From Syntrophorhabdaceae bacterium (lineage in GTDB: Bacteria > Desulfobacterota > Syntrophorhabdia > Syntrophorhabdales > Syntrophorhabdaceae), in NCBI GenBank assembly GCA_963665295.1, contig OY762209.1, positions 5,120,001 through 5,184,000 of the forward strand: 64,000 nucleotides of DNA, in the 5' to 3' direction. The notes below the pieces were generated by a model. It was given only the letters and a program-made list of their open reading frames with translations. It was not told the origin of the DNA and made no database searches. A program made the translations under genes and the position numbers. Positions 38,448-57,620 of the stretch are shown piece by piece; position 1 is the stretch's first letter, and every line of letters starts with the position of its first letter.

Positions 38448-38460
38448 CGCACGAAAACCA

Positions 38461-41213: not shown

Positions 41214-41241
41214 GTGATATACGGAAATACCTATGCCTGTC

Positions 41242-41553
41242 TTAGCAGCTACATGACCCGCATGTGTTTTTTTCTGTCAGTTTTGAGGTGATTTTGAATC
41301 CGCCGCCCGCTGCAGTCTCGACGAAATCGACTCCTATGGGATTCACTTCTTCAAGGAGCCCCTTGTTTACCAGGAAGGTTACGCCTTCCTCCTTGAAAAT
41401 TTCATCATCTTCTTTTGGCCCGTCCAGAGCCATCCCCAGTGAGGGGCCCGATCACCCGCCTCCTGCCATCAGAATCCTGATGGCGCTGTCAAGGTTCCTG
41501 TCTTTCAGGAAAGCCTTGATCATTTCACTCGCCTTCTCGGTAACCTGAAACAT
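41242..41553 (-). CDS. IscA/HesB-like selenoprotein (Sec at codon 34)
   Basis: AAGGAG RBS, ATG 41553: MFQVTEKASEMIKAFLKDRNLDSAIRILMAGGG-TGA-SGPSLGMALDGPKEDD...CGSCSC; TGA (41454-52) at the position of the first conserved HesB Cys. Confidence 0.9.
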
Positions 41554-41679
41554 ATCCCGCTCCTTGTCGTAAATTTGTCACCCCTGTGTGCAGTGACAGT
41601 GAATATAATAATAATACCTATTGGCAGTGCTTTGTCAATGCCCCCCTGTCACCCCCCGTAATACCAACGAAATCCTCCG

Positions 41680-43101
41680 TTATTCCTGACGGCGATGCGG
41701 GTGGTCAGGGGTCGGGCTTGAAGATGTGGCCAGTCGGCTGAAACGTCTCACAAAAAACGTGATGGACCACGCCAGTACCGGAGAAAGCCAGATGACCGCG
41801 GCAATCAGGTCATTCTCCGCCCACTCTCCGAGAATGGAATATCGAATGGTCACATGATAGGCGAGGAAGACCGCCCAACTCAGAACGAGTCCTGCCGGAC
41901 CGGCCGAGAAGGGAAGAAGGGCTGCAAGGTAAAGGGCGTACCATGGGTGAAGGGTGGGGGCAAGGAGGAGATAGACAAAAGTGACGAGATAGAGGGAATC
42001 CATCAGACCCGGGGCGACAGGACTTCCCTGTTGCCGTGTCCTTCTCCTGAACAGGATGGTAATCACCAGAATGAGCGCCACCGACAGGGAGGCAAGGACC
42101 ATCCTGGTTTGGCTGCCCGAATCGAGCAGGGTCCGGAGGGTACGAAAGGCGGCATTGGCGAACTCCCAGTTCTGGAGGTAGATACCCAGACTCGCGAGCA
42201 TATGACTCAGGTCGGGAAGGAAGGGGATGGAGAAGAGGGCCAACGCCGAAACACATCCTCCTGCGAGGTACAAGGGGGCGATTGCGGCACACAAAAGCAC
42301 GGGAAGATAGATAAGGGGAATCACTTTTACGAGTATGGAGAGGGCGACTGCCGCTCCCGCGCCTGAATGCAGGACAATCGTCTTCACCCGAGCCGTTCCC
42401 CGAAGGCCCTTTTTCAGGTCCGCCCCTTCGCCGGAGCGGATGACGAGGGCGACTGCCGCAAAAAGAAACAGGACTGCCGCCACGTCTATGTGACCCGACC
42501 AGGCAATCTCGATGATAGGGAGAGGGTGCCACGCATAAAGGACCGCCCGCCACACGGGCAGGTTCATAGTCCTAAGAAGCGCGATAATGACCATACACGT
42601 CGCCATGTCCAGGGTGACGAGAACGACCTTCAGGCCGCCATAGCCTTTCGCGAGGGCCGCCCCTGCGGCAAAGATCACCTGGGCTGCCGGCGGATAAATC
42701 GTGTGGAACAGGGGATGGTTGACCTTGTTCAGGATTGTCGCGCTCCATCCGTCAAAGGCAACGGATGCCGCGGGAGTCCGACTGTAGGGGTTGTTTCCGT
42801 GAAGGGTTTGCAGGCCATCCCACAGGTACCGGTAGATATCGTCGGAAAGCTGGGGCGCCTGGAGCACGAAAAGGAGACGGCAGGCAAGGGCGAAACCGAG
42901 AATGGCCCCGGGGGAGAGTTGTATCTCCTCTTTCCCGCCCCCATAGAAGAGGACCGCGAGGAGTATGACCGCCATGGCGGTAACGCCCACAAGGATGGGT
43001 ATTGACACAGGTACATCCCTGCGAAGGGCGAGAAAGAGGTAGTCCGCAAAGAGAAGTAACCCCACGACCCGCGGGAGGGCCGCCCTGCAACCGATTCTCA
43101 T
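41680..43101 (-). CDS. Polytopic GT-C type glycosyltransferase (GT87/DUF2029-like)
   Basis: LSDDIYRYLWDG, NPY, TIYPP, YAWHPL..IE...SGH.D, HPWY; many TMs; TAATG overlap with upstream gene. Confidence 0.8.
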   Translation of the reverse strand: MRIGCRAALPRVVGLLLFADYLFLALRRDVPVSIPILVGVTAMAVILLAVLFYGGGKEEIQLSPGAILGFALACRLLFVLQAPQLSDDIYRYLWDGLQTLHGNNPYSRTPAASVAFDGWSATILNKVNHPLFHTIYPPAAQVIFAAGAALAKGYGGLKVVLVTLDMATCMVIIALLRTMNLPVWRAVLYAWHPLPIIEIAWSGHIDVAAVLFLFAAVALVIRSGEGADLKKGLRGTARVKTIVLHSGAGAAVALSILVKVIPLIYLPVLLCAAIAPLYLAGGCVSALALFSIPFLPDLSHMLASLGIYLQNWEFANAAFRTLRTLLDSGSQTRMVLASLSVALILVITILFRRRTRQQGSPVAPGLMDSLYLVTFVYLLLAPTLHPWYALYLAALLPFSAGPAGLVLSWAVFLAYHVTIRYSILGEWAENDLIAAVIWLSPVLAWSITFFVRRFSRLATSSSPTPDHPHRRQE

Positions 43102-44585
43102 TACGCCTTCTCCGGCTCCCGTCCTGCGAAAAATTCCGTGAAGTCCATGCATATGACAAGGAGGAACCCGAAGGGAAAGACAAGGAGGAATGGAACGGCG
43201 AACCATGTATTTCTCGCCAGTGCATACCAGACAGGGAGCAGCGTGTACGCAAGGAAGAGGATGTTGATGAGGATATGGGAAAGGGGCCGCTCGCGATAGA
43301 GAAAAGAGAGGGCCGGCATCTTTCCCCGCCCCTTGATGGCGTATTTGGGGGTCCTGTCGAACACGCCGCCCTTCTTGAAGAGGCCCTTGAAAACGGAGAG
43401 GGCGATGCTCGGCGCAAGGCCGATGGAAAATACGGGAAGGACGAGAAGGGCGCGTAGGCGCACCCGGCGTTCCTGGTCCTTGCGATAGAGGGCAAAATAG
43501 AGAAGGATGGCGACGCTGCTCAGGATAAAGAGGGGCACGTCAATACGGATGATCTCGTGGGGTCCTATGGCGGTCCTTGCCAGAATCGTGGGGTAGAGGG
43601 TCAAGGTCACCACGGTTCCGAACACCCATCCGAGATTGGCGAGGAGATGGGCCACGGCCTCCAGCTTCACGGCCAAGGGGAGGCGGGCCCTGAGGAGGCG
43701 GGGCAGTATCTTTCTCGCCGTCTGTATCGAACCTTTCGCCCACCGCTCCTGCTGGCAACGGAACGATGACATGGTGACGGGCAATTCCGACGGCACCTCG
43801 AGGTCATCGAGGTAGCGAAACCGCCAGCCCGCAAGCTGGGCCCGGTAACTGAGGTCGAGATCCTCCGTCACTGTGTCGGCCTGCCAGCCTCCCGCCGATT
43901 CAATTGCACTCCGCCGCCACACGCCGGCGGTGCCGTTGAAATTGAAAAAGAGGTTCCTCCTGTACCTCACCCAGTGTTCAATTCCGAAGTGGGGGCCCAG
44001 AAGAAGGGACTGGACAGAGGTGAGCCACGAATGGTCCGTGTTCAGGAATCCCCATTTCGCTTGTACCATGCCGATATTCCCGTCATCGAAGCACGGTATG
44101 GTCCTGTGGAGAAACTCGGGAGAAGGGATGAAGTCGGCGTCGAAGACCGCGATGAATTCGCCTTTCGCAACCTCCATGCCGTGGCTGAGCGCCCCTGCCT
44201 TATAACCTCGCCTGCTGTTTCTGCGAATCACCTTCATATCGACGCCTTGCCCGGACCAGTAGGCCGCCCGTTCATCGACTATGAGGCCCGTGTCGTCGGT
44301 GGAATCGTCGAGGACCTGTATTTCGAGCCTGTTTCCGGGCCATTCCATGGCGGCGGCGGCGTCAAGAAGACGGGCCGCTACAAACCGTTCATTGTAGAGG
44401 GGTAGCTGAACGGTGACAAAAGGGGTGTCCTTCCACGAAAGCCCCTCCCCGTGACGGAGCGGTTCGACAGGCTCAAGCCTCTTCTCCCTGTACCAGTGGG
44501 AAAGGAGCCAGATCCGATGCAGCCCGTAGAGAGCGAGGCCGGAGATTGCGGCAAAATGGATCAGTACCCAATAATCGGAAATCAT
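43101..44585 (-). CDS. Membrane GT2 glycosyltransferase (cellulose synthase-like, D,D,D,QxxRW)
   Basis: VTVQLPLYNE, LDDSTD, GYKAGAL, FDADF, TEDLDLS, QQERWAKG. Confidence 0.9.
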   Translation of the reverse strand: MISDYWVLIHFAAISGLALYGLHRIWLLSHWYREKRLEPVEPLRHGEGLSWKDTPFVTVQLPLYNERFVAARLLDAAAAMEWPGNRLEIQVLDDSTDDTGLIVDERAAYWSGQGVDMKVIRRNSRRGYKAGALSHGMEVAKGEFIAVFDADFIPSPEFLHRTIPCFDDGNIGMVQAKWGFLNTDHSWLTSVQSLLLGPHFGIEHWVRYRRNLFFNFNGTAGVWRRSAIESAGGWQADTVTEDLDLSYRAQLAGWRFRYLDDLEVPSELPVTMSSFRCQQERWAKGSIQTARKILPRLLRARLPLAVKLEAVAHLLANLGWVFGTVVTLTLYPTILARTAIGPHEIIRIDVPLFILSSVAILLYFALYRKDQERRVRLRALLVLPVFSIGLAPSIALSVFKGLFKKGGVFDRTPKYAIKGRGKMPALSFLYRERPLSHILINILFLAYTLLPVWYALARNTWFAVPFLLVFPFGFLLVICMDFTEFFAGREPEKA

Positions 44586-44598
44586 GGTCTGCCTCCGG

Positions 44599-45675
44599 TC
44601 AACCTTCGAAGTGGTGGAGGCGTTCCGGGCCGTTCCCGCAATATTTGCCGGCCTCACGATTCCCCGGCGACTCTACCTGGCCGAAACACCCGGAGCCTTC
44701 GCCCGCGGTGCAGGCAAAGCAATGGTCATCGAACCGGATGGGGATCACTTTCCGAAGCGCCATTTCCAGGTCACTCAAATGCAGGGGTCCCCCCTTATCT
44801 CCGGGCAAGGCCATCCCGACAGCCTGGTTGAAATCGCAGTTGTAAAGGTTCCCCGCCCAATCCACGTTGATAAGAGACCTGCACATGAGGAAAGGGAGGG
44901 TGGCGGGATTGAAAGTCTCCGCCAGGGTGCGCAGGTAGGTAGCCAGACCGCCCCGGGCAACGAGCTGACCCCGGAAACGGCCAACAGGGACATTAGTGAG
45001 GACGATAAGACGGGTGAAGCGGATGCCGAAGCCGGCCATAAGCTCCTGCCGGTACCGGGTCTCCAGGTCTTTCTGGGGGCCGGGAAGTGTGTCGCCCCCC
45101 GGGTTATAGACCAGAGTCAGTTCATGGCTATCTCCGTAGCCGAGGTCATTCAGTTTCCGCAGGACCGCAACAGACCGCTTGAAAACGCCGGTCCCCCGCT
45201 GCCGGTCAACGTTTTCAGGGGTAAAGCAGGGAAGAGATGCCACAAGGGCGAGATCATGGTCTCTATAGAATTCGGGAAGGCCTGTCATGCCCTTTTCTGT
45301 GGCGATGACCAGATTTGTCCTCACCGACCGCCGCATGCCCAGCCCGTCGGTCCCTGCGATGAGATAGGAGAAGTTCGGGTTGAGTTCGGGACATCCGCCG
45401 GTGATATCGAGGTCTATCCCCCCGTGTCTGCGAAGAAAAGCGACGGCCCCGTCAATAACCCCCTTGTCCATGATCTTCTCACCTTCCGGCGAGGCGCCAA
45501 CGTGGCAGTGGGCGCACGCAAGGTTGCACCGGTTACCCAGGTTGAGTTGCAAGGTGCGCAAGGTTTCAAACCGGGGAAAAGGGAGGTCTGTACTCCCTAT
45601 TCTCTCCCCGAAGCAAAAGGCGGGAAGCCGGGTAACATCGCCCGTCCCGGCGTGATCGGTAAGGTGAACTGACAT
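44599..45675 (-). CDS. arsS: ArsS-like radical SAM protein (TIGR04167 rSAM/Cys-rich family), Cys form
   Basis: LQLNLGNRCNLACAHCHV.ASP, DITGG.PELNP, ASLPC, VDRQRG.GVF, LVYNP, LMCRSLI, YNCDFNQ, HCFACTAGEGSGC. Confidence 0.85.
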   Translation of the reverse strand: MSVHLTDHAGTGDVTRLPAFCFGERIGSTDLPFPRFETLRTLQLNLGNRCNLACAHCHVGASPEGEKIMDKGVIDGAVAFLRRHGGIDLDITGGCPELNPNFSYLIAGTDGLGMRRSVRTNLVIATEKGMTGLPEFYRDHDLALVASLPCFTPENVDRQRGTGVFKRSVAVLRKLNDLGYGDSHELTLVYNPGGDTLPGPQKDLETRYRQELMAGFGIRFTRLIVLTNVPVGRFRGQLVARGGLATYLRTLAETFNPATLPFLMCRSLINVDWAGNLYNCDFNQAVGMALPGDKGGPLHLSDLEMALRKVIPIRFDDHCFACTAGEGSGCFGQVESPGNREAGKYCGNGPERLHHFEG

Positions 45676-45707
45676 GAACGACTCCTTCAGGGGCTGCCAA
45701 GGCCCCG

Positions 45708-46223
45708 CTATTTTTTGTCACTGCATGGGTAAACAACGCCCAGGACTTTCTCTTCAAAGAGTATCCGACCGGGACGCCACGCGGTAAGACGGAGACGGCC
45801 GGCGGACTGCGCCGTATGGTTGCTCGGGACAAGCCATATTTTGCCGCGCCACAACCGCCATGTTCCTGTCAGGCCGAGTTCGCCCTCCTTATCGCTAAAC
45901 CCTTTCGCAAGAAGATCCCCCAAGGTTTCGCCGTCGTCGTGCCTCACCAGGGAATACCCCTTGAGGGGTTCCAGCTTCCGAGCGGTGAAGGTGAAGACGC
46001 CCGTACTCTCATCAAAAGAAAGGACACCTTTGGCTCCCCTGGAGACAACCTTCCATGTGGCCGGGTCTTTCGTATAGAGGTTCAGGGACTTCTGCGCGGT
46101 CCGGCTGCGGGCCGCCGGATCAGGAGGGCACTGGGGACCGCCCGACACGCGGCCCGGAGTGAAGGCGAAAAGCACCACGGAGACGAGGGCCCATCCCCAC
46201 AGGCGATGAGACAGGGTAACCAT
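45708..46223 (-). CDS. Secreted hypothetical protein
   Basis: Signal-peptide-like N-terminus, LYTKDP.TW, KIWLVP; sits in operon between sulfurtransferase and arsS. Confidence 0.65.
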   Translation of the reverse strand: MVTLSHRLWGWALVSVVLFAFTPGRVSGGPQCPPDPAARSRTAQKSLNLYTKDPATWKVVSRGAKGVLSFDESTGVFTFTARKLEPLKGYSLVRHDDGETLGDLLAKGFSDKEGELGLTGTWRLWRGKIWLVPSNHTAQSAGRLRLTAWRPGRILFEEKVLGVVYPCSDKK

Positions 46224-46233
46224 GCTCGTGCCC

Positions 46234-47115
46234 CTACCGGGAACCTCGTTTCTGCCACGCCGCCATTCCACCCTCGTAGTTGCGGGCCGTGGGCAACCCC
46301 CCCAGTTGGTGGACAAGCCACGCATAGCCCGACCGTATACCTCCATAGCAGTAATAGACCACAGGGCGGGAGGTATCGACTCCATGACTCACAAGAAGCT
46401 TCTTTACATCCGCGGGGGCGAGGGGCCGCCGGTCGCCTCCGCGGTAGAAGTCCTCCCAGGAGATGTGGATCGATCCCGGTATCTTCCCTTTCAGCCGTTC
46501 AAAGGTGGAGCGGACATCGACTATGACAGGGGACCCTTTTCCCTGCTCCAGGTCCTCGGTGGAAATGTCCAGTTCCGGCTTCAGACTGACTTTATAGCTC
46601 GCCTTGGCAACGGCTCTCTTCTCCGGCCCTTTCGCCAGAGGGAATTCCTGGGTACGCCACGCCTGAATGCCCCCGTTGAGAAGCCGGATGGGACCTTTAT
46701 GACCAAGCCACGAGAGGACCCACGCGTCCCACCCTTCGCCTCCCCAGCTCTTGTCGGCATCACCATAGACGACCACGGGCGTATTCTCGTCTATCCCAAA
46801 GGCTCCGAGGGCAAGGGCGAGCTCTTTAGGAGGAAAGACGCGGTACTCCACACCCGACGGGTCCGTCCGTGTATAGTTCTCCCAGCAAAAGGAGTGCGCT
46901 CCAGGTATGTGGCCTGCTTCCCACTCCGATCTCGGGCGTCCGTCCAGAACGACCCATCGCGACCGGTTCCCGTTTAGGGAGGCCGCATCGATGAGTCCCA
47001 GGTCAGGGGCAGGGGCGGCTCCCGCCGGGGCGAGGGTTCCCGCCGCAATTGTGAGGAGGATTGCCAGTGTGGCTGCAATGAGGGATTTGTTCAGCATACT
47101 TACTCCTTTTATCAT
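46234..47115 (-). CDS. Exported tandem-domain rhodanese/sulfurtransferase
   Basis: Signal peptide, GHIPGA, IVDVRS, active loop YCYGGIRS, NYEGG..AW. Confidence 0.88.
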   Translation of the reverse strand: MIKGVSMLNKSLIAATLAILLTIAAGTLAPAGAAPAPDLGLIDAASLNGNRSRWVVLDGRPRSEWEAGHIPGAHSFCWENYTRTDPSGVEYRVFPPKELALALGAFGIDENTPVVVYGDADKSWGGEGWDAWVLSWLGHKGPIRLLNGGIQAWRTQEFPLAKGPEKRAVAKASYKVSLKPELDISTEDLEQGKGSPVIVDVRSTFERLKGKIPGSIHISWEDFYRGGDRRPLAPADVKKLLVSHGVDTSRPVVYYCYGGIRSGYAWLVHQLGGLPTARNYEGGMAAWQKRGSR

Positions 47116-47930
47116 TTTTCCGCTCCCCTGCGAACAAAAGGACGAGCCAGGGAAATGGGATTCTTGTACCCTGGATTATCTTCTTCCAGCGCGGTATCCG
47201 CGCACCCTTCCCCCCGCCACAACTCCCGGCCGATGACCCAGAGTATCTTGGAGCCCGCACGGAGGACGCCGACCAGGGTGCGGCTTATTTTCGACTGTCC
47301 CGCAACCCTCACGTGATAGGGCAAGGGACACTCCACTGTCTTGAGATTTGCCCTGATCGCCTTGATCTGCATCTCCACCGTCCACCCGAAGTCCCTGTCG
47401 GTCATGTGCATGGCCATGAGCGCCCCCCAGGACACGGCCCTCATGGGGCCGAGGTCATGATATTCAACCCCCCAGAACAGGTCGATAAGGCGTGTGGCCA
47501 GCCAGTTTCCGAAACGCTGTTGCGGACTTAAGGCCTGTCTCGCGTCAGGCACTCTCCGGGCCAGGGCGAGATCGGCTTCATTATCAAGAAGAGGGCGAAC
47601 CAGAGTCGCGAGGTTCTCCACACCGTCACTGCCGTCCCCGTCGGCAAAAGCGACTATCCGGGGCGGGTCGTCTCTCAACGCGGCAATACCCGCGAGGCAC
47701 GCGCTTCCGTAACCGGGGGACCCTTCGAAGACCACCCGGGCGCCGTGGGAGCGGGCAATTTCGCCCGTCCCGTCCGTGGAGCCGTTGTCTACCACAATCA
47801 CCGTGCCGATCGAAGCAGGAACCCTTGACAGGACGGCGGGAAGCGACTGTGCTTCGTTGAGGGCGGGGATGATGAGCGCGATTCCATGAAGCGGGAACCG
47901 GGATAGGCCCTCTTGTAAGGCGTCACTCAC
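47112..47930 (-). CDS. GT2 glycosyltransferase (DPM/polyprenyl-phosphate glycosyltransferase-like)
   Basis: IIPALNEA, VVDNGSTDGT, GYGSACLAG, FADGDGSD, DLGPMRA, GWTVEMQ, R.AGQSKIS; GTG start overlapping upstream stop. Confidence 0.88.
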   Translation of the reverse strand: MSDALQEGLSRFPLHGIALIIPALNEAQSLPAVLSRVPASIGTVIVVDNGSTDGTGEIARSHGARVVFEGSPGYGSACLAGIAALRDDPPRIVAFADGDGSDGVENLATLVRPLLDNEADLALARRVPDARQALSPQQRFGNWLATRLIDLFWGVEYHDLGPMRAVSWGALMAMHMTDRDFGWTVEMQIKAIRANLKTVECPLPYHVRVAGQSKISRTLVGVLRAGSKILWVIGRELWRGEGCADTALEEDNPGYKNPISLARPFVRRGAEK

Positions 47931-49770
47931 CGGGGGCCTCCCCGGTCTTTCTACTCTTGAACCGTTTGTAGAACAAGGGAATGAGGGAAACAAGCACTAT
48001 CAACCCGACCCCGATGAGGGCCGCAGGTGAGACGCTCCCCCTGACGAGATCGAGAAGAGAACTGGAAAAGACGATAAAGGCGATACATGCGGGAAGCATG
48101 CAGATAAAGGTCGTTGCCACGTAATGAGTCAGTGGGACCTTGGTAAGGCCGAAAGCGTAGTTGACGAGATTGAAGGGAAACGCCGGGATGAGGCGCGCCA
48201 CGGCCACCGCCTTCCATCCATGTCTGGCTGTCTCTCTGTCCAGTCTTTCCCATTTGGGGCCGGAAAGCTTTTTAAGGACCCATTCCCTTGCCGCATACCG
48301 GGCCGTAAGAAAGGCGAGGGTCGCTCCCACTGTTGAACCGACAATAGTATAGACTACACCCCAGAAAGGACCGAAGAGGATGCCGCCTACAATGGTTATG
48401 GGTAGGCCGGGAAGGAAGAGGACGGGCGCGAGGGCATAGATGAGCATATAGATGGCGGGCGCGAGGCCGCCATACCCCGATATCAGGGCCCGCAGCCGGT
48501 CCTGTTGCAGGTAGTGCATCGCTCCCGACGCGTGGACGGAGATGATTGCCGCCGCGAGGACAATCACAAAAACCGCGAGCTTCCAGGGTCGTCTCGCGGG
48601 CCCCGCCTCGCCCGGTGTGAAGTTCCTTTCCCGTGTCGCCGCAAATCCCTCCATCCGGGAGTACGTCTTTTTGAGGCGAAGCCTGTTGAGGTACGTGAAG
48701 GGGGCTCGCGCCGCCTTGACCTTTCCCTCCAGGGCTTTTTCAGGTTCGAAGACGAGGTCGGCTACGTGGCTCGTTGCCGAGTGACTGCCAAGTGCGTTGA
48801 CGCACCCCGCACAGTAGGTGACCATTCGTCGTCCCCCCGCTTCTTTCTTGCGCATAAGTCCCCAATTTTCGGCCAGTTCCGGAGAGAGAAGATTGACTCC
48901 CCCGCCCTGGCCGCAACAGAGGGTTTCCCTGCCGCTGTGTTTCATCTCCTCCACGGTCAGACCAAGGCGTCTCAACAAACCACGCACCGCTTCGTGGGCC
49001 GGCTCAAGGTTCCGGGCCACACATGGGTCGTGAACCACCACCGTTCCCCGAAGGTCTCCGGTCATGGGTGTTCCGTTGTCCGCCAGGGCCTCATAGACGG
49101 TCTTCACCGCCGGCCCGTGATCGGGAGCGTTCAACATGTTATGGCAGTTGGCACACGCCACGAGGATTTCCTTCACCCCGTGACCGACAAGATACGCCAT
49201 CATTTCTTCGAGCATGGCCCGGGCGTGGCGCTCCCGTCCAAGGCTGTCGGAGGGCTTGGTACAGCAATCGAGGACAATGCCTGTCTTCGGGTCCGCTTTT
49301 CTCAGGGCGTCAAAGATTTGCTTTACCGCGGCGGGCCGCGAACCGGCGAGGCCGCAACCCGGAAAGAATACGGTGCTGCAGCCCTCGGGGAGCCCGTAGA
49401 AGGTGAAACGCCGGGATGTACCGAGTTTCTCGTAGGCAAGAAGCGGCTTATGTTCGTCGAAGGTTCCAAGGCCCCGGTCAACCGCTTCCCGCCGCATCTC
49501 AAGGAAGAGACCGCCGGGATCGATTCCCTTGGGACACAGATTGGCGCAAAGGCCGCAGAGGCTGCACTCAAAAGCACGGAGAAGGACCTTATCGCCCGAC
49601 CCGGCGAGTTCTTCGGCGATGGTCGCGGGGGTGCCGTACTTTTCGAGAAAAGCACATTCACCGACACAGATGTGACATTTCGTGCAGTCTGTCAGGGTGC
49701 GGTCAAGATGGGCCTGCAGAGGGCTCCGGTATGGGGTTGTGTTGGTCTCTCCTATCTCTGTCCTGTTCAT
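47923..49770 (-). CDS. Fe-S/CCG-domain oxidoreductase (HdrD/GlpC-like) fused to VTT/TVP38 (DedA superfamily) membrane domain
   Basis: CTKCHICVGEC, CSLCGLCANLCP, FFPGC, CCTKP, HDPC, CCGQGG, TYCAGC; C-terminal PGLPITIVGGILFG, RLIPAFPFNLVNYAFGLT. Confidence 0.85.
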   Translation of the reverse strand: MNRTEIGETNTTPYRSPLQAHLDRTLTDCTKCHICVGECAFLEKYGTPATIAEELAGSGDKVLLRAFECSLCGLCANLCPKGIDPGGLFLEMRREAVDRGLGTFDEHKPLLAYEKLGTSRRFTFYGLPEGCSTVFFPGCGLAGSRPAAVKQIFDALRKADPKTGIVLDCCTKPSDSLGRERHARAMLEEMMAYLVGHGVKEILVACANCHNMLNAPDHGPAVKTVYEALADNGTPMTGDLRGTVVVHDPCVARNLEPAHEAVRGLLRRLGLTVEEMKHSGRETLCCGQGGGVNLLSPELAENWGLMRKKEAGGRRMVTYCAGCVNALGSHSATSHVADLVFEPEKALEGKVKAARAPFTYLNRLRLKKTYSRMEGFAATRERNFTPGEAGPARRPWKLAVFVIVLAAAIISVHASGAMHYLQQDRLRALISGYGGLAPAIYMLIYALAPVLFLPGLPITIVGGILFGPFWGVVYTIVGSTVGATLAFLTARYAAREWVLKKLSGPKWERLDRETARHGWKAVAVARLIPAFPFNLVNYAFGLTKVPLTHYVATTFICMLPACIAFIVFSSSLLDLVRGSVSPAALIGVGLIVLVSLIPLFYKRFKSRKTGEAPGE

Positions 49771-49778
49771 GTCTCTCC

Positions 49779-50624
49779 TCAGAAGAGCGATGTTTTGATG
49801 TACACGGCCAGGCTGAAGGTGCTGCCGGCCGATGTATTCTTACCATAAAGTTCCTTTATATACGAGCCCTCCAGTCCCCACGTCGGCCTCACTTTGTAAC
49901 CCAGGGCAAGATCGAGCTTGCCCAGGTCAAAATTATTCGTCGCCGTGGGATTGCCCCAACTTCCCATATTCGATCCGTTGTTGGCGCTTAAAGTCCCATC
50001 AAGCTTGGCCCTGCCGTAAAGCGGGGTTTTGCCGAAGTCCGAGCCGACTTCGGCGAGATAGCGGAACTCGTTTGACGGCGCTCCTGCCCGCCACCGATAC
50101 CCGGCCTCGATATTGCCGTAGCCCGGAATGAGAGGCCAGAAGGAGCGGCCGTAGAGCACTCTGGCTTCAAGATCATACTGGCCGTTGCCGAGCGGAAGAG
50201 CGTCGGTGCTGCCATAGAGACCCGGCACCTTGACGAGGACCTGCGTTGAAACAACGCCTTGTTTACCCTCAAGAAGCTTTATTCGGGCGCCGAGGTCGAT
50301 ATCGCCGAAACTCCTCGCGGCGAAATTGCCGCCCGTATAGTCGTTATGGAGCCATTTGTAGCTGAAGGAGGTGATGGCGGTGACGTAGTCGGTGATACCT
50401 ATCTCAAAATAATTACTGATGTTGCGGTCCTTGAACCTCCCATTGTTCGGGGTCCTTACCCGGTCTTTCGAAGAATCGAAGACATGGTCGGCATAGTAGT
50501 AGTTGAAGGCTATCTTCTCGTAGAAAACTCCCTTCGGCTGCGTCCAGGCGCCGGCAAATACGTTGGAAGAAAGGGCGGTAGCAAGGAGTAACATGACGAT
50601 AAAAGTTAACGAGGGTAATCTCAA
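49779..50624 (-). CDS. Putative outer-membrane beta-barrel/transporter
   Basis: Signal peptide ending AGAW, amphipathic strands, FGDIDLGAR, PLGNGQYD, terminal Phe. Confidence 0.65.
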   Translation of the reverse strand: MRLPSLTFIVMLLLATALSSNVFAGAWTQPKGVFYEKIAFNYYYADHVFDSSKDRVRTPNNGRFKDRNISNYFEIGITDYVTAITSFSYKWLHNDYTGGNFAARSFGDIDLGARIKLLEGKQGVVSTQVLVKVPGLYGSTDALPLGNGQYDLEARVLYGRSFWPLIPGYGNIEAGYRWRAGAPSNEFRYLAEVGSDFGKTPLYGRAKLDGTLSANNGSNMGSWGNPTATNNFDLGKLDLALGYKVRPTWGLEGSYIKELYGKNTSAGSTFSLAVYIKTSLF

Positions 50625-50644
50625 CTTATTCCTCCAAGAATATA

Positions 50645-50680
50645 CCGGGAAGGGCAGGCGGTGGTCCGCCCGTCCTTCCC
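50645..50680 (-). other. Intra-operonic GC-rich hairpin (mRNA stabiliser/partial terminator)
   Basis: CCGGGAAGG-GCAGGCGG...CCGCCCGT-CCTTCCCGG inverted repeat between rhodanese and barrel genes. Confidence 0.55.
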
Positions 50681-50711
50681 GGCGGGTTCTCTTGCGTGGT
50701 CCCGTTCGGTC

Positions 50712-51773
50712 TTAAGGGGTTACCGCGGGATAAACTGTGGGATCCTGCCTGCTCCATTCACTCCAGGAGCCCTGATAATGCCTTACGGAGGTATAGCCGA
50801 GGCCAAGGAGGAGATGGGTTACATGAGCCGAGCGGAAACCACCCTCACAATAGGGAACGGCCGTCTTGTCCTTGGTTATCTCAAGCCCGGTAAACAGGGT
50901 GCGGAGGTCCGCCTCGCTCTTGAGTATCTTGATGGGCAATCCCGTGTCCGTATCGACAACCCCCGTGTCCGTGAATACATCTGTCCAGTTAAGGGCGACT
51001 GCATCGGGAATGTGGCCGCTCCTCGGGTTTCCCGACTTCACATCGGTGCCGGCATATTCACCCGGCGTGCGGGCGTCAACGAGCACGGTTCCCGTGACTT
51101 CACCGTTGACTACGGACAATACGTCGTATCTCGTAGCCAGGATATCCGCATAGGCGCTCAGGACGTAAGGCTTTGCGGTGGGATTGGGCGTCGGCAGGGT
51201 CGGGGTGGTGGTCAGATATTTCGCGCTCGTATTCTTGTCCACGAACTTCCATTTGGGAAAACCGCCGTCCATGTTATAGGCTTTCTGGTGACCATAGAGC
51301 TTGAGCGTCCAGACAAGCCGCGCCGACAGGCCCCAGTCGGCGTCGTCGGCATCGCCATAAGTGACGACGGTGGTGCTGGCCGATTTAATGCCCCAACTGT
51401 TCACCAGCTTGATAAACTCGGTGGGAGTCGGGGTCATGTAATGTATGATGGTCCCGTCGGTTCCCTCGGTTCTATTAACAAAATAGGTTGAACTGGGGAC
51501 ATTGATGGCCCCTTTGATGTGACCTGCGGCATATTTCGTGGCGCTACGGGTGTCGATAAGGAGAATTCCCCCCAGATGCGATTTTACCCATGCAGTGGTG
51601 ACGAAATATTTGCTGAACTGGGTGCTGAACTTCTGAGCCGGTGTTGCCCCTTTCTGTTCATACGTTTCGGAGCCGGACGCCGGTCCATCGGCCCTGACCA
51701 CGGGTATGAAGATCGATGAGAGCAGCATTAATACAGCAATAGGTACGATAACAAGACTGGTAACACGTTTCAT
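50712..51773 (-). CDS. Exported tandem-domain rhodanese/sulfurtransferase
   Basis: AGGAGGA RBS, signal peptide, GHIKGA, VDARTPGEY.G, RSGHIPDA, YCEGGFRSA, YQGSWSEWS. Confidence 0.9.
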   Translation of the reverse strand: MKRVTSLVIVPIAVLMLLSSIFIPVVRADGPASGSETYEQKGATPAQKFSTQFSKYFVTTAWVKSHLGGILLIDTRSATKYAAGHIKGAINVPSSTYFVNRTEGTDGTIIHYMTPTPTEFIKLVNSWGIKSASTTVVTYGDADDADWGLSARLVWTLKLYGHQKAYNMDGGFPKWKFVDKNTSAKYLTTTPTLPTPNPTAKPYVLSAYADILATRYDVLSVVNGEVTGTVLVDARTPGEYAGTDVKSGNPRSGHIPDAVALNWTDVFTDTGVVDTDTGLPIKILKSEADLRTLFTGLEITKDKTAVPYCEGGFRSAHVTHLLLGLGYTSVRHYQGSWSEWSRQDPTVYPAVTP

Positions 51774-52173
51774 AAGCGCTTCCTCCTTATGTAATTGAAT
51801 GCCGTTACACCTGAATTTCACTGGCATTGCTCGCCTTGACGGAGATCCCGGAGCGGGCCCTGACCCGGCCCATGGGGAAGACCGGCGTGGTCACTTTTCA
51901 ATGCGTGCCCGGCCTCGACCCCGACCGGTGCTGCGGGCTCAGAAATAAAGTCGAGGAGATACAGAGGAGGTCCCTGTCGAAATCCGCACGGGCCACCGGT
52001 CAAATCAACATTTCATTCCCGCAGAAAGGCACGGCCTTCAAAAGCTCCTGTCTTTAGTTTGTTATTACTATCATAGGGTAGATGAATTAGTCAATAATTT
52101 ATTATTACTCTGATATACAAAATGAATCAGTAAACCGGGTAAATCAAAAAGCCTTATAGGAGGCCAATCGCCG

Positions 52174-52203
52174 TTGACTCGCGAAGGCCGGTTAATGTAG
52201 ATT
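52174..52203 (+). promoter_or_regulatory. Putative sigma70 promoter for B12-radical SAM gene
   Basis: TTGACT-N18-TAGATT. Confidence 0.4.
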
Positions 52204-52259
52204 AGAAATACGCCCGGCATCGAGGCGGCGCTCTCCAAAGGTAAGGAAAACAGAATACG

Positions 52260-53687
52260 GTGAAACTTCTCTTTCTCTCCTTCGACTACCTCACCCAACC
52301 ATTGGGGATCGCCACTCTTTCCGCGGCCCTTCATCAGGCGGGGCACCATGCCGAAGTTGCCTCCCTCGGCGATAAAACGCGACAGGAATCACTCTTAAGA
52401 GATTTCAAACCCCATATCCTCTGTCTCTCGCTGGTCACGGGTCAACATCCCCTGTTCCTTGAAAGGGCGCGGCAGATAAAGGCCGGGTACCCGCACCTTC
52501 TGGTGCTGGCCGGGGGTCCGCACCCCACCTTCTATCCGGAATGCATAGGAGAACCCTGCATCGACGCGCTCTGTCGGGGGGAGGGCGACGTTGCTTTGCC
52601 GGCCCTTGTCGATGCCGTGGACCGGACGGGCGCCATGCCGGAAAGCCTTGCAAACTGGTGGATCAAAGGGCATGACGGCTCCATTTCCCGTAGCCATGTC
52701 GCAGCCCTCGTCAATAACCTTGACCGCCTCCCCTTTCCCGACCGCGACATCTTCGACAGGGCTCGTCCGGGCCCCGCGCCGGTGACCGTCTTTGTCATGG
52801 CGTCGCGGGGCTGTCCTTTCAACTGCAGCTACTGCTTCAATCATGCGTACCGAAAGCTGTATCAGGGGCAGGGCGTCATGTGCCGCAGGCGGACCGTGGG
52901 CAATGTGATCGCCGAGATCAAAACGTTGCGGAAGCGCTACCCCTTGCAGATGGTGGTGTTCCAGGACGACACCTTCAACCTCGACAAGACATGGCTACGG
53001 GAGTTCGCGAAAGAATACGGGAGGGAGATAGACCTGCCGTTTCACTGCCATCTCCGTGCCGATCTTCTCGACGCCGAGACCGCGTACCTGTTGCGGCGGG
53101 CCGGTTGTCTTTCGGTCAAGCTCGGCCTCGAAGCCGGTCGCGAAGAGGTGCGTAACGGCATTTTGAAACGGGGCATGACGCTCCGGCAGTTCGAGAATGC
53201 CTGCACGCTGCTTACGCAGAGCGGTATCCGTCTTGCGACCGAGAATATTCTTGCAACGCCGGGCACAACCCTCGAAGACGACCTCTTCACCTATTCCGTC
53301 AACCGGCGCGTGAGGCCCCGGCACAGTTTTGCCACCCTCATGCAGATCTATCCGCGGACCGATATCGCCTCCTACGCCCTTGAGCACGGGTTTGCGGCTG
53401 CACCGGTTACGGATTTTCCCGCCACGTTCTACGAAGACTCGGCCGTCACCATCACGGATAAGGATAAGCGGGGCAGACTCCGGGCCCTCTTTGCCCTGGC
53501 CGTGAGCCTGAACCTGCCGCTCCGTGTGGTACGACTGCTGCTTGCACTGCCCTTCAGGGGAGTATATGAGTTTGTGGACCGGCTCTGGAAGGGGTACTGC
53601 CTGAGATTCCGCATCTACCCTTACACGCAAAGCATGGGAAGCTTTATGAGGGACGTGGGGAGCTACCTCCGGGGGAAATACTATTGA
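52260..53687 (+). CDS. Cobalamin-binding radical SAM protein
   Basis: QPLGIATLSA, AGGPHPT, GEGD, LPFPDR, SRGCPFNCSYC, FQDDTF, GLEAG. Confidence 0.9.
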   Translation: MKLLFLSFDYLTQPLGIATLSAALHQAGHHAEVASLGDKTRQESLLRDFKPHILCLSLVTGQHPLFLERARQIKAGYPHLLVLAGGPHPTFYPECIGEPCIDALCRGEGDVALPALVDAVDRTGAMPESLANWWIKGHDGSISRSHVAALVNNLDRLPFPDRDIFDRARPGPAPVTVFVMASRGCPFNCSYCFNHAYRKLYQGQGVMCRRRTVGNVIAEIKTLRKRYPLQMVVFQDDTFNLDKTWLREFAKEYGREIDLPFHCHLRADLLDAETAYLLRRAGCLSVKLGLEAGREEVRNGILKRGMTLRQFENACTLLTQSGIRLATENILATPGTTLEDDLFTYSVNRRVRPRHSFATLMQIYPRTDIASYALEHGFAAAPVTDFPATFYEDSAVTITDKDKRGRLRALFALAVSLNLPLRVVRLLLALPFRGVYEFVDRLWKGYCLRFRIYPYTQSMGSFMRDVGSYLRGKYY

Positions 53688-53765
53688 CCCCGTCCTTCGG
53701 TTGTCCTCTCCGTGCCGCCCGGGGGCGGGCTCGACATATGTTCCGCAACAGGAAAGGGGTCACCA

Positions 53766-55127
53766 ATGGGCTTCGGTAGTCATATCCTCATATTCGCCCG
53801 ATACCCGGAGCCGGGAAAAGCCAAGACACGGCTTATTCCCGCCCTCGGGCCCGTGGGCGCGGCGCGGTTGCACCGGCGGATGACTGAAAAGGCGGTGGCC
53901 ACGGCGCGGGCCGGACTCGCGTCCTCCCGGGAAGTCGGTGCCCGCATACTGGTTTGTTGCACCGGGGCGCCTCCCGGCGCTTTCCGGGCGTGGTTGGGAG
54001 AGGACCTCCTTTACGCGGCCCAGCCTTCCGGGGACCTGGGCATCCGTATGGGCCGGGCCTTCAAGTCCGCCCTGCGCCATGGCGCGCCTGCCCTGGCCAT
54101 CGGTTCCGACGTGCCCGCCATAACCCCCGCGATCCTCGCTCAGGCCTTCGAAAGTCTGCATGATCATGATGTCGTTCTCGGACCGGCCGGGGACGGCGGC
54201 TATTATCTCATAGGGCTAAAACGCTTTAACCCGGAGTTGTTCTCAGGCATCGAGTGGGGAACGGGGGAAGTGTGGAATCAGACCTGCCACGTCCTTTCAA
54301 GGCAGGGACTGAAAGTTGCCCGGTTGCCGGTATTGAGCGATGTGGACCGCCCCCGGGACCTTCCCCCGCTGCGGGGCGATTCGCTCTTCGCGGACTGCTT
54401 CACGGGTAAAACACCACTTTCCATTGTCATCCCCACACTCAATGAGGCGGACGGCCTCGGCGGAGTACTCGAACGCCTTCATAAGGCAGCCGCCGCCCAA
54501 ATTATCGTGGCGGACGGCGGAAGCACGGATCAAACCCGGGAAATAGCCGCGCAGGCAGGCGCCCTTGTAATGGAAGTGCCGGGAGGCAGGGCCTGCCAGC
54601 AGAACGCCGGGGCGGCGGCTGCCGGCGGGCGCCTGCTCCTGTTCCTTCACGCAGACACGCTGCTACCCGAAAACTACGCCGACCTTATCCGGGAGACACT
54701 GGACAACCCTTCTATCGTGGCCGGGGCGTTCCGGTTTCAGACGGATGCTCCCGGTATGGCCATGCGCTTCATTGAATGGACCGCCAACCTGAGATCGGTC
54801 CTCATGCAGGCCCCATACGGAGATCAGGGTTTGTTCATGGAGAAGAGGGTGTTTCAGGAAATGGGCGGGTTCGCGCCTTTACCGGTCATGGAGGACTTTG
54901 ATCTCGTCCGCCGGCTCAGGCGCCGTGGCGCCGTAACAACCCTTCGCGCCGGTGCGGTCACCTCGGCGCGGCGCTGGCGGCAACTCGGTGTAATCCGCAC
55001 GACCGTGACCAACATGCTCATGGTGGGAGGTTTCTTTTGCGGCGTGCCGGTGGAAAAGTTGAGCCGCCTCTACCGGAAGGGCGGGGCCTCTCCCCCCGGC
55101 CCCGCCCCGAACGGCCCCGGTTCCTGA
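53766..55127 (+). CDS. Fusion of TIGR04282-like (DUF2064/CofC-like) and TIGR04283-like GT2 domains
   Basis: IFARYPEPGKAKTRL, Q.SGDLG.RM, IGSD.P, LGPA.DGGYYLIG, DVDRP.DL; then SIVIPTLNEA, GRA.Q.NAGA, FLHADT, PYGDQGLF, MED, TSARRW. Confidence 0.88.
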   Translation: MGFGSHILIFARYPEPGKAKTRLIPALGPVGAARLHRRMTEKAVATARAGLASSREVGARILVCCTGAPPGAFRAWLGEDLLYAAQPSGDLGIRMGRAFKSALRHGAPALAIGSDVPAITPAILAQAFESLHDHDVVLGPAGDGGYYLIGLKRFNPELFSGIEWGTGEVWNQTCHVLSRQGLKVARLPVLSDVDRPRDLPPLRGDSLFADCFTGKTPLSIVIPTLNEADGLGGVLERLHKAAAAQIIVADGGSTDQTREIAAQAGALVMEVPGGRACQQNAGAAAAGGRLLLFLHADTLLPENYADLIRETLDNPSIVAGAFRFQTDAPGMAMRFIEWTANLRSVLMQAPYGDQGLFMEKRVFQEMGGFAPLPVMEDFDLVRRLRRRGAVTTLRAGAVTSARRWRQLGVIRTTVTNMLMVGGFFCGVPVEKLSRLYRKGGASPPGPAPNGPGS

Positions 55128-55442
55128 GGAACCATCAGTCCTCCCGGCCCGGTATCCACCGGCCGCTTCACGTGTTTTCCTGAATGCCTGTGGATTTGTC
55201 GACTCAGTTCTGCTGAAGCTTTTCGCCAAACAAGGGAAATATCTTCCTATTCCGCTCATTAATAGATTTTCAAATGCTATAAAATGTATTATAATAGATA
55301 CAGAAACGTTAGACTGGGAAGTGTCGGGTTACGTTGGGAAAAGGCATAAAGACGGCGGCAGGAAAATCACAGGCCCATGTGGTAACCGATAATTCTGCGC
55401 TGAGGAAAGGAGAAAATCATCACCACCACTCGCTGTGATGAC

Positions 55443-57620
55443 ATGGAGAAGGAAGAGACCGGCGCAGCCCGGGTGAATGGCGTCGAGGAGACTGAGAAGG
55501 CCCTCAAGGAAAGCGAGAAGAATTTCCAGGCCCTTCTCAACGCGACCACCGACATGGCATTCCTTATGGACACGAAGGGCCTCATTCTTGCCGCGAACGA
55601 GAACACCGCCCGGGTGTATGATACCACCATGGATACCCTCATCGGCGCGTGTGTCTACGATTTCATGCCCGACCAGGCCGCCCAGAAGTCCATAGCGAAG
55701 GCGGAAGGGGCCGTCAAGTCCCGGATGCACGTACGGTTCCAGGGAAATCTCAGGGGAAAGATCTTCGACAACAGCATCTATCCTGTCTTTGATGAAAACG
55801 GCAACGTCACGAGGCTCGCGGTATACGGCAGGGATATCACCGAGGCCCAAAGGGTACAGGACGCCCTCCGGAAAACGGAGGAAAAGTACCGGAACATATT
55901 TCACAATGCCACGGAAGGCATATTCCAGATTTCACCCGAGGGACATTTCATAAGCGCGAACCCGTCTCTCGCCCGCATACACGGTTACGAATCGCCCGAG
56001 GAACTCATGAGTTCGGTGGCAAGCGTGACCACGCTTTACGTGCATCCCGAAAAACTTCTTGATTTCACGCGCCTTCTTCACCAGAAGGATCATGTGTCCA
56101 ACTTCGAGACCCAGATGCGCCACAAAGACGGCAGCATCCAGTGGATATTGATCAACGCCCGGGCCGTGAGGGATGAAGACGGGCGGATACTCTACCTCGA
56201 AGGCACCATGCAGGACATCACGGAACGGAAGAGCGCGGAAGAGGCCCTTGCGGAAAGCGAGGAGAGGTACCGGACGGCCATCGAACATTCCAACGATGGA
56301 GTGTCCATCATCAAGGGCGATACCCATCTTTATGTGAACAGACGGTTCGTCGAGATGTTCGGCTACGACCGCCCTGAGGATATCGTGGGGAAACCCATAG
56401 AGATCACCGTCCATCCCGACGACGTGGCCATGGTCAAAGAGATCAACCTGCGCAGGCACCGCGACGCACCCAATCCGTCACGTTACGAATTCAAAGGCGT
56501 CACGCGGGACAAGAAGATTATTTACGTGGAGGTTTCCGCCACCAATATCACCTACCGGGGGGCGCCGGTTTCTCTGGTCTACCTGAGAGATATTACCGAG
56601 AGGAAACGCGCTGAAGAGGCGCTCAGGCAATCGCACCTCGAACTGGAGAGGCTCAACAGTGCAAAAACCAAGGCGGTGAACCACATCTCTCATGAGTTGA
56701 AAACCCCCCTTGCCGTGGTCCAGGGCAACATACGGATCCTTAAACGGAAGATCGAGAGTACTTCCTTTGCTGAAGGGGTACGGGGTAATATCGAGGTCCT
56801 CGAACGAAATCTCGAAAGGCTTTTCAGCATCTCGAAACAGACCGACGAGATCTTCCGCGTATCTCAGGAATTGGAGGCCGGGGTCGTTCTGAGCGACCTT
56901 GACCGTCTATGGGAAAGAATGGAAGGCTTTCCGGAAATGCCTCCCGAGGTACGCGCCGACTGGTCTCGCGTAAAAAGATGGATCAGCCGGTACATGTCCG
57001 GCAGCCCCCTCTCCTTTCAGTCCATCGACCTCTATCCTTTCCTCCAGTCCCTGGTGGAGAAGGTGAAACAGAAAGCGCGCCACAGGAAGATCAGGTATGT
57101 CGTCGAGGGGGAGAACGATCTCTACGTCTTCATGGAGCCCGATATCCTGGGCGACGTGCTCGAGGGACTTCTCAAGAACGCCATAGAGAATACCCCTGAC
57201 GGGGGCGTCATCAAGGTCGTGGCGGACCAGAAGGACGAGACCATTTTGGTCCACGTCACGGATTACGGCGTGGGGATCGTGAAAGAAAACATCCAGTATC
57301 TTTTCGACGGTCTCTTCGATACCCGTGAGACGGACCTCTATACGTCCAGGAAACCCTATGATTTCGGGGCGGGAGGCAAGGGATTCGACCTTCTCCGGAT
57401 AAAGATGTACGGGAAACGGTTCGGTTTTGACCTCTCCGTGGAGAGTTGCAGATGTAAATATATCCCTCACGACCAGGACCTGTGCCCCGGCGATGTCGCC
57501 GAATGCACCCTTTGCCGCACCCCGGAGGACTGCACGGAAAGCGGAGGGTCCACCTTTACCATCTCTTTTCCCCCTGAAGCGAAGAGAAAACAGGAAATGG
57601 CCGCCGGAGGACTGCTGTAG
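55443..57620 (+). CDS. Soluble triple-PAS histidine kinase with Cys-rich insert in HATPase domain
   Basis: Three PAS ends (RDITE, QDITE, RDITE), SHELKTPL, KNAIENT, DYGVGI, GKGFDL, CRC...C..C..C..C before GSTF. Confidence 0.9.
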   Translation: MEKEETGAARVNGVEETEKALKESEKNFQALLNATTDMAFLMDTKGLILAANENTARVYDTTMDTLIGACVYDFMPDQAAQKSIAKAEGAVKSRMHVRFQGNLRGKIFDNSIYPVFDENGNVTRLAVYGRDITEAQRVQDALRKTEEKYRNIFHNATEGIFQISPEGHFISANPSLARIHGYESPEELMSSVASVTTLYVHPEKLLDFTRLLHQKDHVSNFETQMRHKDGSIQWILINARAVRDEDGRILYLEGTMQDITERKSAEEALAESEERYRTAIEHSNDGVSIIKGDTHLYVNRRFVEMFGYDRPEDIVGKPIEITVHPDDVAMVKEINLRRHRDAPNPSRYEFKGVTRDKKIIYVEVSATNITYRGAPVSLVYLRDITERKRAEEALRQSHLELERLNSAKTKAVNHISHELKTPLAVVQGNIRILKRKIESTSFAEGVRGNIEVLERNLERLFSISKQTDEIFRVSQELEAGVVLSDLDRLWERMEGFPEMPPEVRADWSRVKRWISRYMSGSPLSFQSIDLYPFLQSLVEKVKQKARHRKIRYVVEGENDLYVFMEPDILGDVLEGLLKNAIENTPDGGVIKVVADQKDETILVHVTDYGVGIVKENIQYLFDGLFDTRETDLYTSRKPYDFGAGGKGFDLLRIKMYGKRFGFDLSVESCRCKYIPHDQDLCPGDVAECTLCRTPEDCTESGGSTFTISFPPEAKRKQEMAAGGLL

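Follow-up and report, generated by a model that had tools for sequence, protein, structure and literature searches.

Mycobacterium tuberculosis caps its lipoarabinomannan with methylthioxylose (MTX), an S-adenosylmethionine (SAM)-derived, 5-substituted pentose like the core of the arsenosugars. In this system, the GT2 enzyme MtxS (Rv0539) is reported to form the lipid donor MTX-P-C50, and the membrane transferase MtxT (Rv0541c) to move the sugar to the envelope glycan (PMC8780516, PMC12088412). In the cyanobacterial arsenosugar pathway, the radical SAM enzyme ArsS is reported to turn dimethylarsenite (DMA(III)) and SAM into 5'-deoxy-5'-dimethylarsinoyl-adenosine (DDMAA) (PMC13598754), and no steps other than those of ArsM and ArsS are characterised in the literature examined. 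Here, a cluster of 11 genes is described from positions 41680 to 55127 of a 64,000-nucleotide stretch (the window) of a Syntrophorhabdaceae genome, in which ArsS is joined to a lipid-linked glycosylation set. The reading that we favour, tentatively and somewhat short of calling it probable, is that the cluster is a conserved envelope-glycosylation module plus ArsS, which would make a SAM-derived arsenic ribose and fix it to an envelope acceptor by means of a lipid carrier. No characterisation of TIGR04282, TIGR04283 or the cluster was found in the literature searched, most subscription journals lying outside its coverage. In the following, G000 is the source genome and C1 its contig; other G numbers denote comparison genomes and L numbers denote loci.

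Organization of the gene cluster

An ORF check of the window showed that all 11 open reading frames (ORFs) are stop-free and intact, on the strands first stated, and the preliminary description of nine packed minus-strand genes diverging from two plus-strand genes was confirmed. From 51773 down to 41680, the minus-strand order is rhodanese 1, an outer-membrane beta-barrel, a CCG oxidoreductase-VTT fusion, a DPM-like GT2, rhodanese 2, a small secreted protein, ArsS, a CesA-like GT2 and a GT-C glycosyltransferase. With refined starts, three of the eight junctions are overlaps (-8, -4 and -1 nt), four are gaps of 8-32 nt and one is a gap of 87 nt. A cobalamin (B12)-binding radical SAM enzyme (B12-rSAM) and a TIGR04282-TIGR04283 fusion are encoded on the plus strand, divergent across 486 nt. 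This putative promoter region (51774..52259) contains sigma70-like sites at 52094-52067 (minus) and 52174-52203 (plus), which are consensus matches only.

The profile searches agreed with the first assignments: TIGR04167, TIGR04282 and TIGR04283 scored above cut-off, and PF00581, PF09335 and PF02754 were matched. Pfam recognised two rhodaneses, CCG plus Fer4 plus VTT domains, two GT2s, and B12-binding plus radical SAM domains. The region 41000-56000 was covered by single contigs from each of two runs with 0 differences, contigs that may be the same as the source DNA. No Rfam family (riboswitch or other RNA) reached its gathering score in 38000-58000, and the base composition of the stretch gave no island signal. 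Selenocysteine was also considered for the cluster genes and set aside as unnecessary, since no frame is interrupted and ArsS carries Cys.

Conservation of the module and its exchangeable positions

The nine-gene order was found again, at 53-80% identity, in a genome of another genus of the same family (G015); the locus L010, titled Syntrophorhabdaceae, is the same DNA as that of G015. In the metagenome loci L108 and L109 the order was kept up to the CesA-like GT2 and was followed by TIGR04282 and two B12-rSAMs. The synteny check proposed earlier thus gave a recurring gene order, in another genus and on two metagenome contigs. Among the 80 closest ArsS loci, the full module was present only in L010, while L032 carried a CesA-like fragment at its edge. 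Because ArsS-centred synteny recovered the full module in one of 80 loci, the survey was re-centred on the GT-C gene, which was found in 28 of 301 genomes of the phylum. All 28 loci were examined, and the counts obtained are lower bounds, some contigs being short.

The DPM-like GT2 was present in 19 of these loci, the CesA-like GT2 in 18, the barrel in 17, a rhodanese in 16, TIGR04282 in 12 and TIGR04283 in 4. ArsS was found in 4, an ArsM domain in 4, a BioB-like radical SAM enzyme in 6, the B12-rSAM in 3, the small secreted protein in 3, CCG plus VTT in 6 and a NapH-like polyferredoxin in 7; G112 has a rhodanese according to Pfam. The stable core is an envelope glycosylation set (DPM-like GT2, CesA-like GT2, GT-C, barrel, exported rhodanese and TIGR04282) and not ArsS, which the preliminary description had placed at the centre and which occurs in only 4/28 loci. 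The radical SAM position was occupied by ArsS (4 loci), by an rSAM-ArsM-DUF5714 fusion (3) or by the BioB-like enzyme (6), and never by two intact enzymes in one locus. A second, redox position held either CCG-VTT or the NapH-like protein, never both. Both slots are interchangeable.

The rarity of ArsS bears on an alternative in which two unrelated functions share the locus, namely an envelope glycosylation with ordinary sugars and a passenger ArsS that, together with TIGR04282/04283, makes soluble arsenosugars. This would agree with the absence of ArsS from the same operon in G201, with the decay of the fusion gene in G015, with the complete second copies in the source genome and with the presence of distant B12-rSAM homologs in general glycan loci (L115, L116). 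However, TIGR04282 belongs to 12 of the 28 loci and also stands beside close GT2 relatives in another phylum, and three different radical SAM enzymes share one slot without intact ones meeting in any locus. Furthermore, ArsS is co-oriented and tightly packed within the operon in G000, G015, L108, L109, G563 and G571. A passenger ArsS is therefore considered decidedly unlikely.

Some variants of the arrangement were also observed. In L108, a small class I methyltransferase (L108:2492-3082) and a second, distant B12-rSAM (L108:8556-10001) are inserted in an otherwise matching operon. In the G015 region L104:3629-9440, additional rhodaneses are accompanied by a barrel fragment and by what is left of a TIGR04282-TIGR04283 fusion, which lies upstream of the B12-rSAM; the region shows signs of being a rearranged, decaying second copy of the module. 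Three loci from other genomes of the taxonomic order (L093, L100 and L101) combine the CCG-VTT fusion with TIGR04282/04283, ArsS and a TsoB-like rhodanese, without the GT-C set.

Glycosylation enzymes and comparison with known systems

The GT-C fold glycosyltransferase (41680..43101, minus, 473 aa) is predicted to be the last transferase, acting on the outward-facing side of the membrane. The gene itself gave no Pfam or NCBIfam match; its homologs carry PF26314/PF09594 (GT87), and the alignment had no sequence match in the PDB. An SDxxRxxWD loop is invariant. The structural model (predicted local distance difference test, pLDDT, 92) matched ALG3, GPI mannosyltransferase I, ALG6 and PimE with TM-scores of 0.48-0.57. 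The CesA-like processive GT2 (43101..44585, minus, 494 aa), assigned by profile and Pfam and with the motifs DAD, TED and QQERW, is the predicted maker of the acceptor glycan or glycolipid. The DPM-like GT2 (47112..47930, minus, 272 aa) is of the polyprenol-phosphate type and is predicted to put the sugar on undecaprenyl phosphate. Module conservation and the GT-C fold bear out the earlier proposal of a conserved, uncharacterised pathway that couples ArsS, TIGR04282 and TIGR04283 to a lipid-linked glycosylation set, and make an envelope product likely.

The plus-strand fusion (53712..55127, likely start ATG 53766) joins TIGR04282 (DUF2064), a CofC-like predicted nucleotidyltransferase, to TIGR04283, a GT2, and both cut-offs were passed (206.7 bits against 134 and 242.9 against 182, respectively). 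The TIGR04282 domain matched PDB 3CGX, a putative nucleoside diphosphate (NDP)-sugar transferase, with E 9e-34. The other fusion (47923..49770, minus, 615 aa) combines an Fe-S dicluster/CCG oxidoreductase (PF13534, PF02754) with a DedA-type VTT membrane domain (PF09335). It reached 207 bits with NF045663 (cut-off 530), and the same fusion was found in 8 further loci, L010 and L090 being counted as one. The VTT domain (PF09335) is presumably part of the DedA superfamily. Flipping of undecaprenyl phosphate has been reported for other DedA proteins (PMC12893004).

The comparison with MTX capping was made through a proxy. We take the MTX cluster to contain genes for a phosphorylase and an epimerase besides one of the DUF2064 family (Rv0535, Rv0536 and Rv0540), and DUF2064 loci from 12 of 51 actinobacterial genomes were used, the named MtxS, Rv0540 and MtxT sequences lying outside the comparison. 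Eight of the 12 loci contained an epimerase and a close relative of the window DPM-like GT2 (E 1e-17 to 1e-45); of the remainder, three had TIGR04283, two of them with ArsS, and in one DUF2064 stood alone. L118 adds a GT87 adjoining DUF2064 that is homologous to the window GT-C (hhalign 98.8%), L119 adds a phosphorylase, and L121 has ArsS beside a phosphorylase. The window combines both actinobacterial partner sets of DUF2064, minus the epimerase.

As in MTX capping, a GT2 would make a polyprenyl-phosphate sugar and a membrane transferase would move the sugar to an envelope glycan, and the window GT2, TIGR04282 domain and GT-C have their homologs in the GT2/DUF2064/GT87 set found in actinobacterial loci with an epimerase. 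Unlike in MTX, there is neither an epimerase nor a phosphorylase in the cluster, and a ribo-sugar is therefore expected; a radical SAM front end, a barrel, rhodaneses and a redox enzyme are present in addition. Lipoarabinomannan is excluded as the acceptor, and the cluster is not a member of the MTX system. With the cyanobacterial arsenosugar neighbourhood the window shares ArsS, TIGR04282 and TIGR04283 above cut-offs, and TIGR04169 stands beside the second ArsS of the genome. In contrast to that system, it has no NF038099/canonical ArsM, TIGR04282 and TIGR04283 are fused, and the DPM-like GT2, CesA-like GT2, GT-C, barrel, two exported rhodaneses, CCG-VTT, B12-rSAM and a protein with a superoxide dismutase (SOD) fold are additional.

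ArsS, ArsM and the nature of the product

The window ArsS (44599..45675, minus, 358 aa) reached 363.5 bits with TIGR04167 (cut-off 300) and E 3e-44 with PF12345 (DUF3641). It has the motifs CNLACAHC at 50 and CFACTAGEGSGC at 319, the latter in the Cys form without selenocysteine, and no sequence relative was found in the PDB. Many ArsS genes of the phylum carry an in-frame TGA (e.g. G025:C31:10071-10973), the known selenocysteine form; the window copy has no TGA. Members of TIGR04167 are often selenoproteins (PMC13188914). A second ArsS of the genome is preceded by TIGR04169 and an outer-membrane barrel gene (G000:C1:4956921-4959328, L008). A quick tree built from 97 ArsS rows placed the window copy among Geobacterales-type sequences and the second copy with relatives of the same order, which suggests that the window gene may have been acquired from elsewhere. 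The genome also has a second, unfused TIGR04283-TIGR04282-VTT set (G000:C1:3363800-3366050, L106:8821-11019), a nucleoside phosphorylase homolog (G000:C1:3857423-3858121) and, away from module genes, a BioB-like radical SAM enzyme (G000:C1:3238099-3239100) that is 59-64% identical to the module-slot enzyme of other genomes.

The cluster had been described as lacking arsM, and a genome-wide search extended this: no canonical ArsM was found in the genome, the best scores being 42.7 bits with NF038099 (cut-off 400) and 137.9 bits with NF008823 (cut-off 263). At a distance of 138 kb (about G000:C1:5022802-5023485, L001:1441-2184, minus), between TRAP-transporter and ABC/EthD-like genes, there is an ArsM-like gene that contains an in-frame UGA as part of a UxxG motif, with a candidate hairpin 3' of the UGA. 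Its best family was ArsM_AhpD_UU (161 bits, cut-off 510), and its product is a probable selenoprotein; selA is present in the genome. It was rejected as the missing ArsM: only the last of the four Cys/Sec positions is kept, as UGA, the others being a gap, Ala and Gly, and its neighbours are TRAP and ABC genes.

A survey of the order (41 genomes, including the source genome) showed how far the lack of ArsM is informative. ArsS was present in 20 genomes, and of these three had ArsM over cut-off, seven had weaker matches and ten had none at E 1e-30, while ArsM over cut-off was found in 8 of the 21 genomes without ArsS. A missing arsM is ordinary among ArsS-bearing relatives and is not the special clue for which it had been taken. 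In the phylum, ArsS was found in 111 of the 301 sampled genomes, and to our knowledge most of these belong to anaerobes not known as arsenosugar makers.

The arsenic reading draws its support from the fusion that shares the slot of ArsS. This rSAM-ArsM-DUF5714 protein of ~1,030 residues is encoded inside the module in G319, G175 and G049 (L134:841-3933, L135:509-3724 and L149:6426-9473), and its ArsM domain retains all four ArsM Cys motifs. Genome-wide, it was found in 10/28 genomes with the GT-C and in 12/273 others (p 3e-6, with the reservation that kin are not independent; the ten span nine families), and this enrichment supports arsenic. ArsS or the fusion was present in 21/28 GT-C genomes and 109/273 others. 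Just three of the 22 phylum genomes with the fusion (22/301) have ArsS too, as would be expected if the fusion were an alternative to ArsS. A canonical ArsM is encoded ~7 kb from the module in G275.

Alternatively, the same lipid-carrier route may serve a sugar with sulfur or selenium (a methylthio-, thio- or seleno-ribose, derived from methylthioadenosine or from S/Se adenosylation), in which case the module would be the arsenic-free equivalent of the MTX cap in a Gram-negative organism. In agreement with this, the module occurs with a BioB-like radical SAM enzyme in three genomes that have neither ArsS nor ArsM, rhodaneses with intact catalytic Cys are found in 16/28 loci, ArsS without ArsM is common in the order, and the selenoprotein character of many TIGR04167 members is matched by selA in the genome. 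On the other hand, an ArsM-containing fusion, about eightfold commoner in module genomes, occupies the same slot, the window ArsS retains the family motifs, the rhodaneses are predicted to be exported and so apart from the cytoplasmic radical SAM enzyme, and the epimerase of MTX-type loci is missing. A product without arsenic is thus regarded as unlikely, if less so than the other alternatives discussed here. On the choice between arsenic and sulfur/selenium, left undecided in the preliminary description, the Cys motifs and the enrichment of the fusion lean to arsenic.

Several observations weigh against an arsenic ribose made by this module. No GT-C, barrel or B12-rSAM was seen in 79 of the 80 closest ArsS loci, many of which are short, and in G201, of another family, the operon order is kept without ArsS, whose gene lies elsewhere. 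ArsS by itself is not enriched with the GT-C (13/28 against 98/273, p 0.31). G112, G293 and G265 have the module with the BioB-like enzyme and neither ArsS nor ArsM, so that the module can exist without an arsenic marker. A phosphorylase or epimerase was found in none of the 28 GT-C loci, the window included. The best NCBIfam matches of the DPM-like GT2 (AglJ, dolichyl-phosphate hexose transferase and PpgS) are all below cut-off, and no PDB sequence match was found for it. Finally, the arsenic source has to be assumed: methylarsenic would be scavenged, the genome being without a canonical ArsM.

The cobalamin-binding radical SAM enzyme

The B12-rSAM (52260..53687, plus) is a member of a 475-aa subfamily without a name and is a predicted tailoring methylase. 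It consists of PF02310 and PF04055 domains, with the motifs GGPHPT and CPFNCSYC. These B12-binding and radical SAM domains are common to the class B radical SAM enzymes (BchE, HpnJ, PhpK and BzaD), from which the window enzyme differs in scoring far below their cut-offs: no NCBIfam cut-off was reached, and the best score was 90 bits, where the named families (PhpK, BchE, HpnJ and ArsL) need at least 250. The subfamily is tight (72 database matches at 54% identity or more) and is marked by H262-C263-H264, present in 68/68 core and 0/34 distant homologs.

The enzyme is rare (3/301 genomes of the phylum, 5/42 in the class of G112), and the 181 genomes searched from the order of G201 yielded no ortholog. 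In all six metagenome loci it adjoins module genes. Of the seven genomes that encode it, five have ArsS in the cluster and two have the BioB-like enzyme there. It directly follows ArsS in G563, G571 and G564 (the latter an assembly full of frameshifts), and all three have ArsM-type genes. The most likely substrate of the B12-rSAM is what the adenosylating enzyme produces. Distant homologs of the B12-rSAM occur in general glycan loci, two of which (L115 and L116) contain arrays of three to four such genes, and for this reason sugar C-methylation would be as plausible as methylation at arsenic.

The B12-rSAM was also considered as a stand-in for ArsM. First counts were in this direction (0/17 against 3/11, p 0.05), and G000, G015 and G112 have the enzyme without ArsM over cut-off. 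The candidate role was dropped when three of four further genomes were found to have ArsM over cut-off, the fourth having a partial match: ArsM accompanies the ortholog in 3/7 genomes. In addition, the B12-rSAM is absent from 25 of the 28 GT-C loci. A distinctly improbable but specific variant is that the HCH-motif enzyme adds a third methyl to the adenosylated arsenic, giving a permanently cationic trimethylarsonio-ribose that would be fixed by the lipid carrier to the envelope glycan as a charge modifier. If true, an enzyme would be at hand to account for trimethylarsonio-ribosides, and the envelope polymers of anaerobes would act as a sink for arsenic.

Exported rhodaneses, barrel and small secreted protein

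Rhodanese 1 (50712..51773, minus, 353 aa, start picked by its ribosome-binding site) heads the minus-strand operon, and rhodanese 2 (46234..47115, minus, 293 aa) follows the DPM-like GT2. Both are tandem PF00581 proteins below the 3-mercaptopyruvate sulfurtransferase cut-off. Their loops, CEGGFR and CYGGIR, respectively, place the catalytic Cys in a six-residue loop, and it is retained in most module homologs. Both proteins begin with signal-like hydrophobic segments, and ArsS has none. Since the rhodaneses are predicted to be exported and ArsS to be cytoplasmic, sulfur donation from one to the other is topologically unlikely, and the idea that the rhodaneses feed sulfur to the radical SAM step is not supported, the partners probably residing in different compartments.

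A scheme that follows the preliminary description combines a B12-rSAM replacing ArsM with rhodaneses that enzymatically yield a thio-arsenosugar or thio-arsenolipid. Thio-ribosides are known analytes (PMC11228943), and thionation after export would suit the predicted location of the rhodaneses. Thio-arsenicals, however, also form in the presence of sulfide (PMC12608789), and no enzyme need therefore be invoked; taken with the counts for the B12-rSAM, this makes the combined scheme very improbable.

The predicted outer-membrane beta-barrel (49779..50624, minus, 281 aa) has a signal-like N-terminus and a C-terminal Phe. Its Atlas clusters are annotated 'putative transporter', one set with 25% PF13557. 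The operon opens with the gene of an exported rhodanese and, next to it, that of an outer-membrane barrel, an order that recalls the rhodanese ExtH and porin ExtI of Geobacter sulfurreducens, where ExtI affects selenite and tellurite conversion (PMC5877670). The window differs in its weak ExtH scores (50 bits for rhodanese 1 and 21 bits, cut-off 200), in a barrel that resembles PF13557-type clusters and in having no cytochromes. By analogy, the rhodaneses and barrel would fit the capture and uptake of a thiophilic metalloid.

The same likeness to the ExtI/ExtH pair, tied to selenite reduction, may be read as pointing to an uptake and salvage system that imports and degrades foreign arsenosugars or nucleosides and makes no product. 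The GT-C, the two GT2s and the nucleotidyltransferase-like domain are biosynthetic, and no hydrolase was found among the 11 genes in NCBIfam and Pfam scans, which leaves salvage extremely improbable.

The small predicted secreted protein (45708..46223, minus, 171 aa) has no family name and gave 10 sequence matches, including itself. Its structural model (pLDDT 69.5) is a Cu/Zn-SOD-like beta-barrel, and the top 15 structural matches were all of SOD/CCS type (best Z 9.8, root-mean-square deviation 3.2, 105 aligned). No His is found among the invariant or nearly invariant columns of 11 aligned sequences, and because of this, despite the SOD-like fold, the protein is not a SOD.

Neighbouring genes

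In the rest of the window, an ArsR-family regulator followed by a 4Fe-4S membrane protein was found at 30913-31951, 10 kb from the cluster, and a DDE transposase (PF13701) at 36710-38233, 3.4 kb from the cluster end. At 59456-61547, a glutaredoxin, a ferredoxin-thioredoxin reductase beta/rubredoxin fusion and a xanthine/uracil-type permease follow in a row.

Proposed pathway and its implications

On the favoured reading of an arsenic ribose bound to the envelope, the barrel, exported rhodaneses and CCG Fe-S oxidoreductase would together import methylarsenic from the environment, bind it and reduce it to DMA(III), which would make a local ArsM unnecessary. ArsS would then adenosylate DMA(III) to DDMAA, as is known for cyanobacterial ArsS and is expected here from family membership, and a housekeeping nucleoside phosphorylase encoded elsewhere in the genome would free adenine. 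The TIGR04282 domain could turn the resulting ribose-1-phosphate into an NDP-sugar. By homology, undecaprenyl phosphate would receive the sugar from the DPM-like GT2, the VTT domain would flip or recycle the carrier, and the GT-C would transfer the sugar outside the membrane, probably onto the glycan made by the CesA-like GT2. The B12-rSAM would serve as an optional methylase of the intermediate that ArsS has adenosylated, and a side branch leading to a soluble arsenosugar may depend on TIGR04283.

The neighbourhood was already known by NCBIfam names, and the lipid-carrier route has the MTX precedent. What is new is the ArsS-coupled B12-rSAM subfamily, the slot statistics and the secreted protein with the SOD fold. 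Being compact, the operon supplies candidate late enzymes that can be put to the test, and both an arsenosugar linked to lipid and an envelope polymer bearing arsenic are predicted from it. The interchangeable radical SAM slot points to two more candidate heteroatom-adenosylating enzymes. If the proposal is true, arsenosugar and MTX biosynthesis would be one strategy, the placing of a SAM-derived 5-substituted pentose on the envelope, and anoxic habitats would hold an extra pool of bound arsenic.

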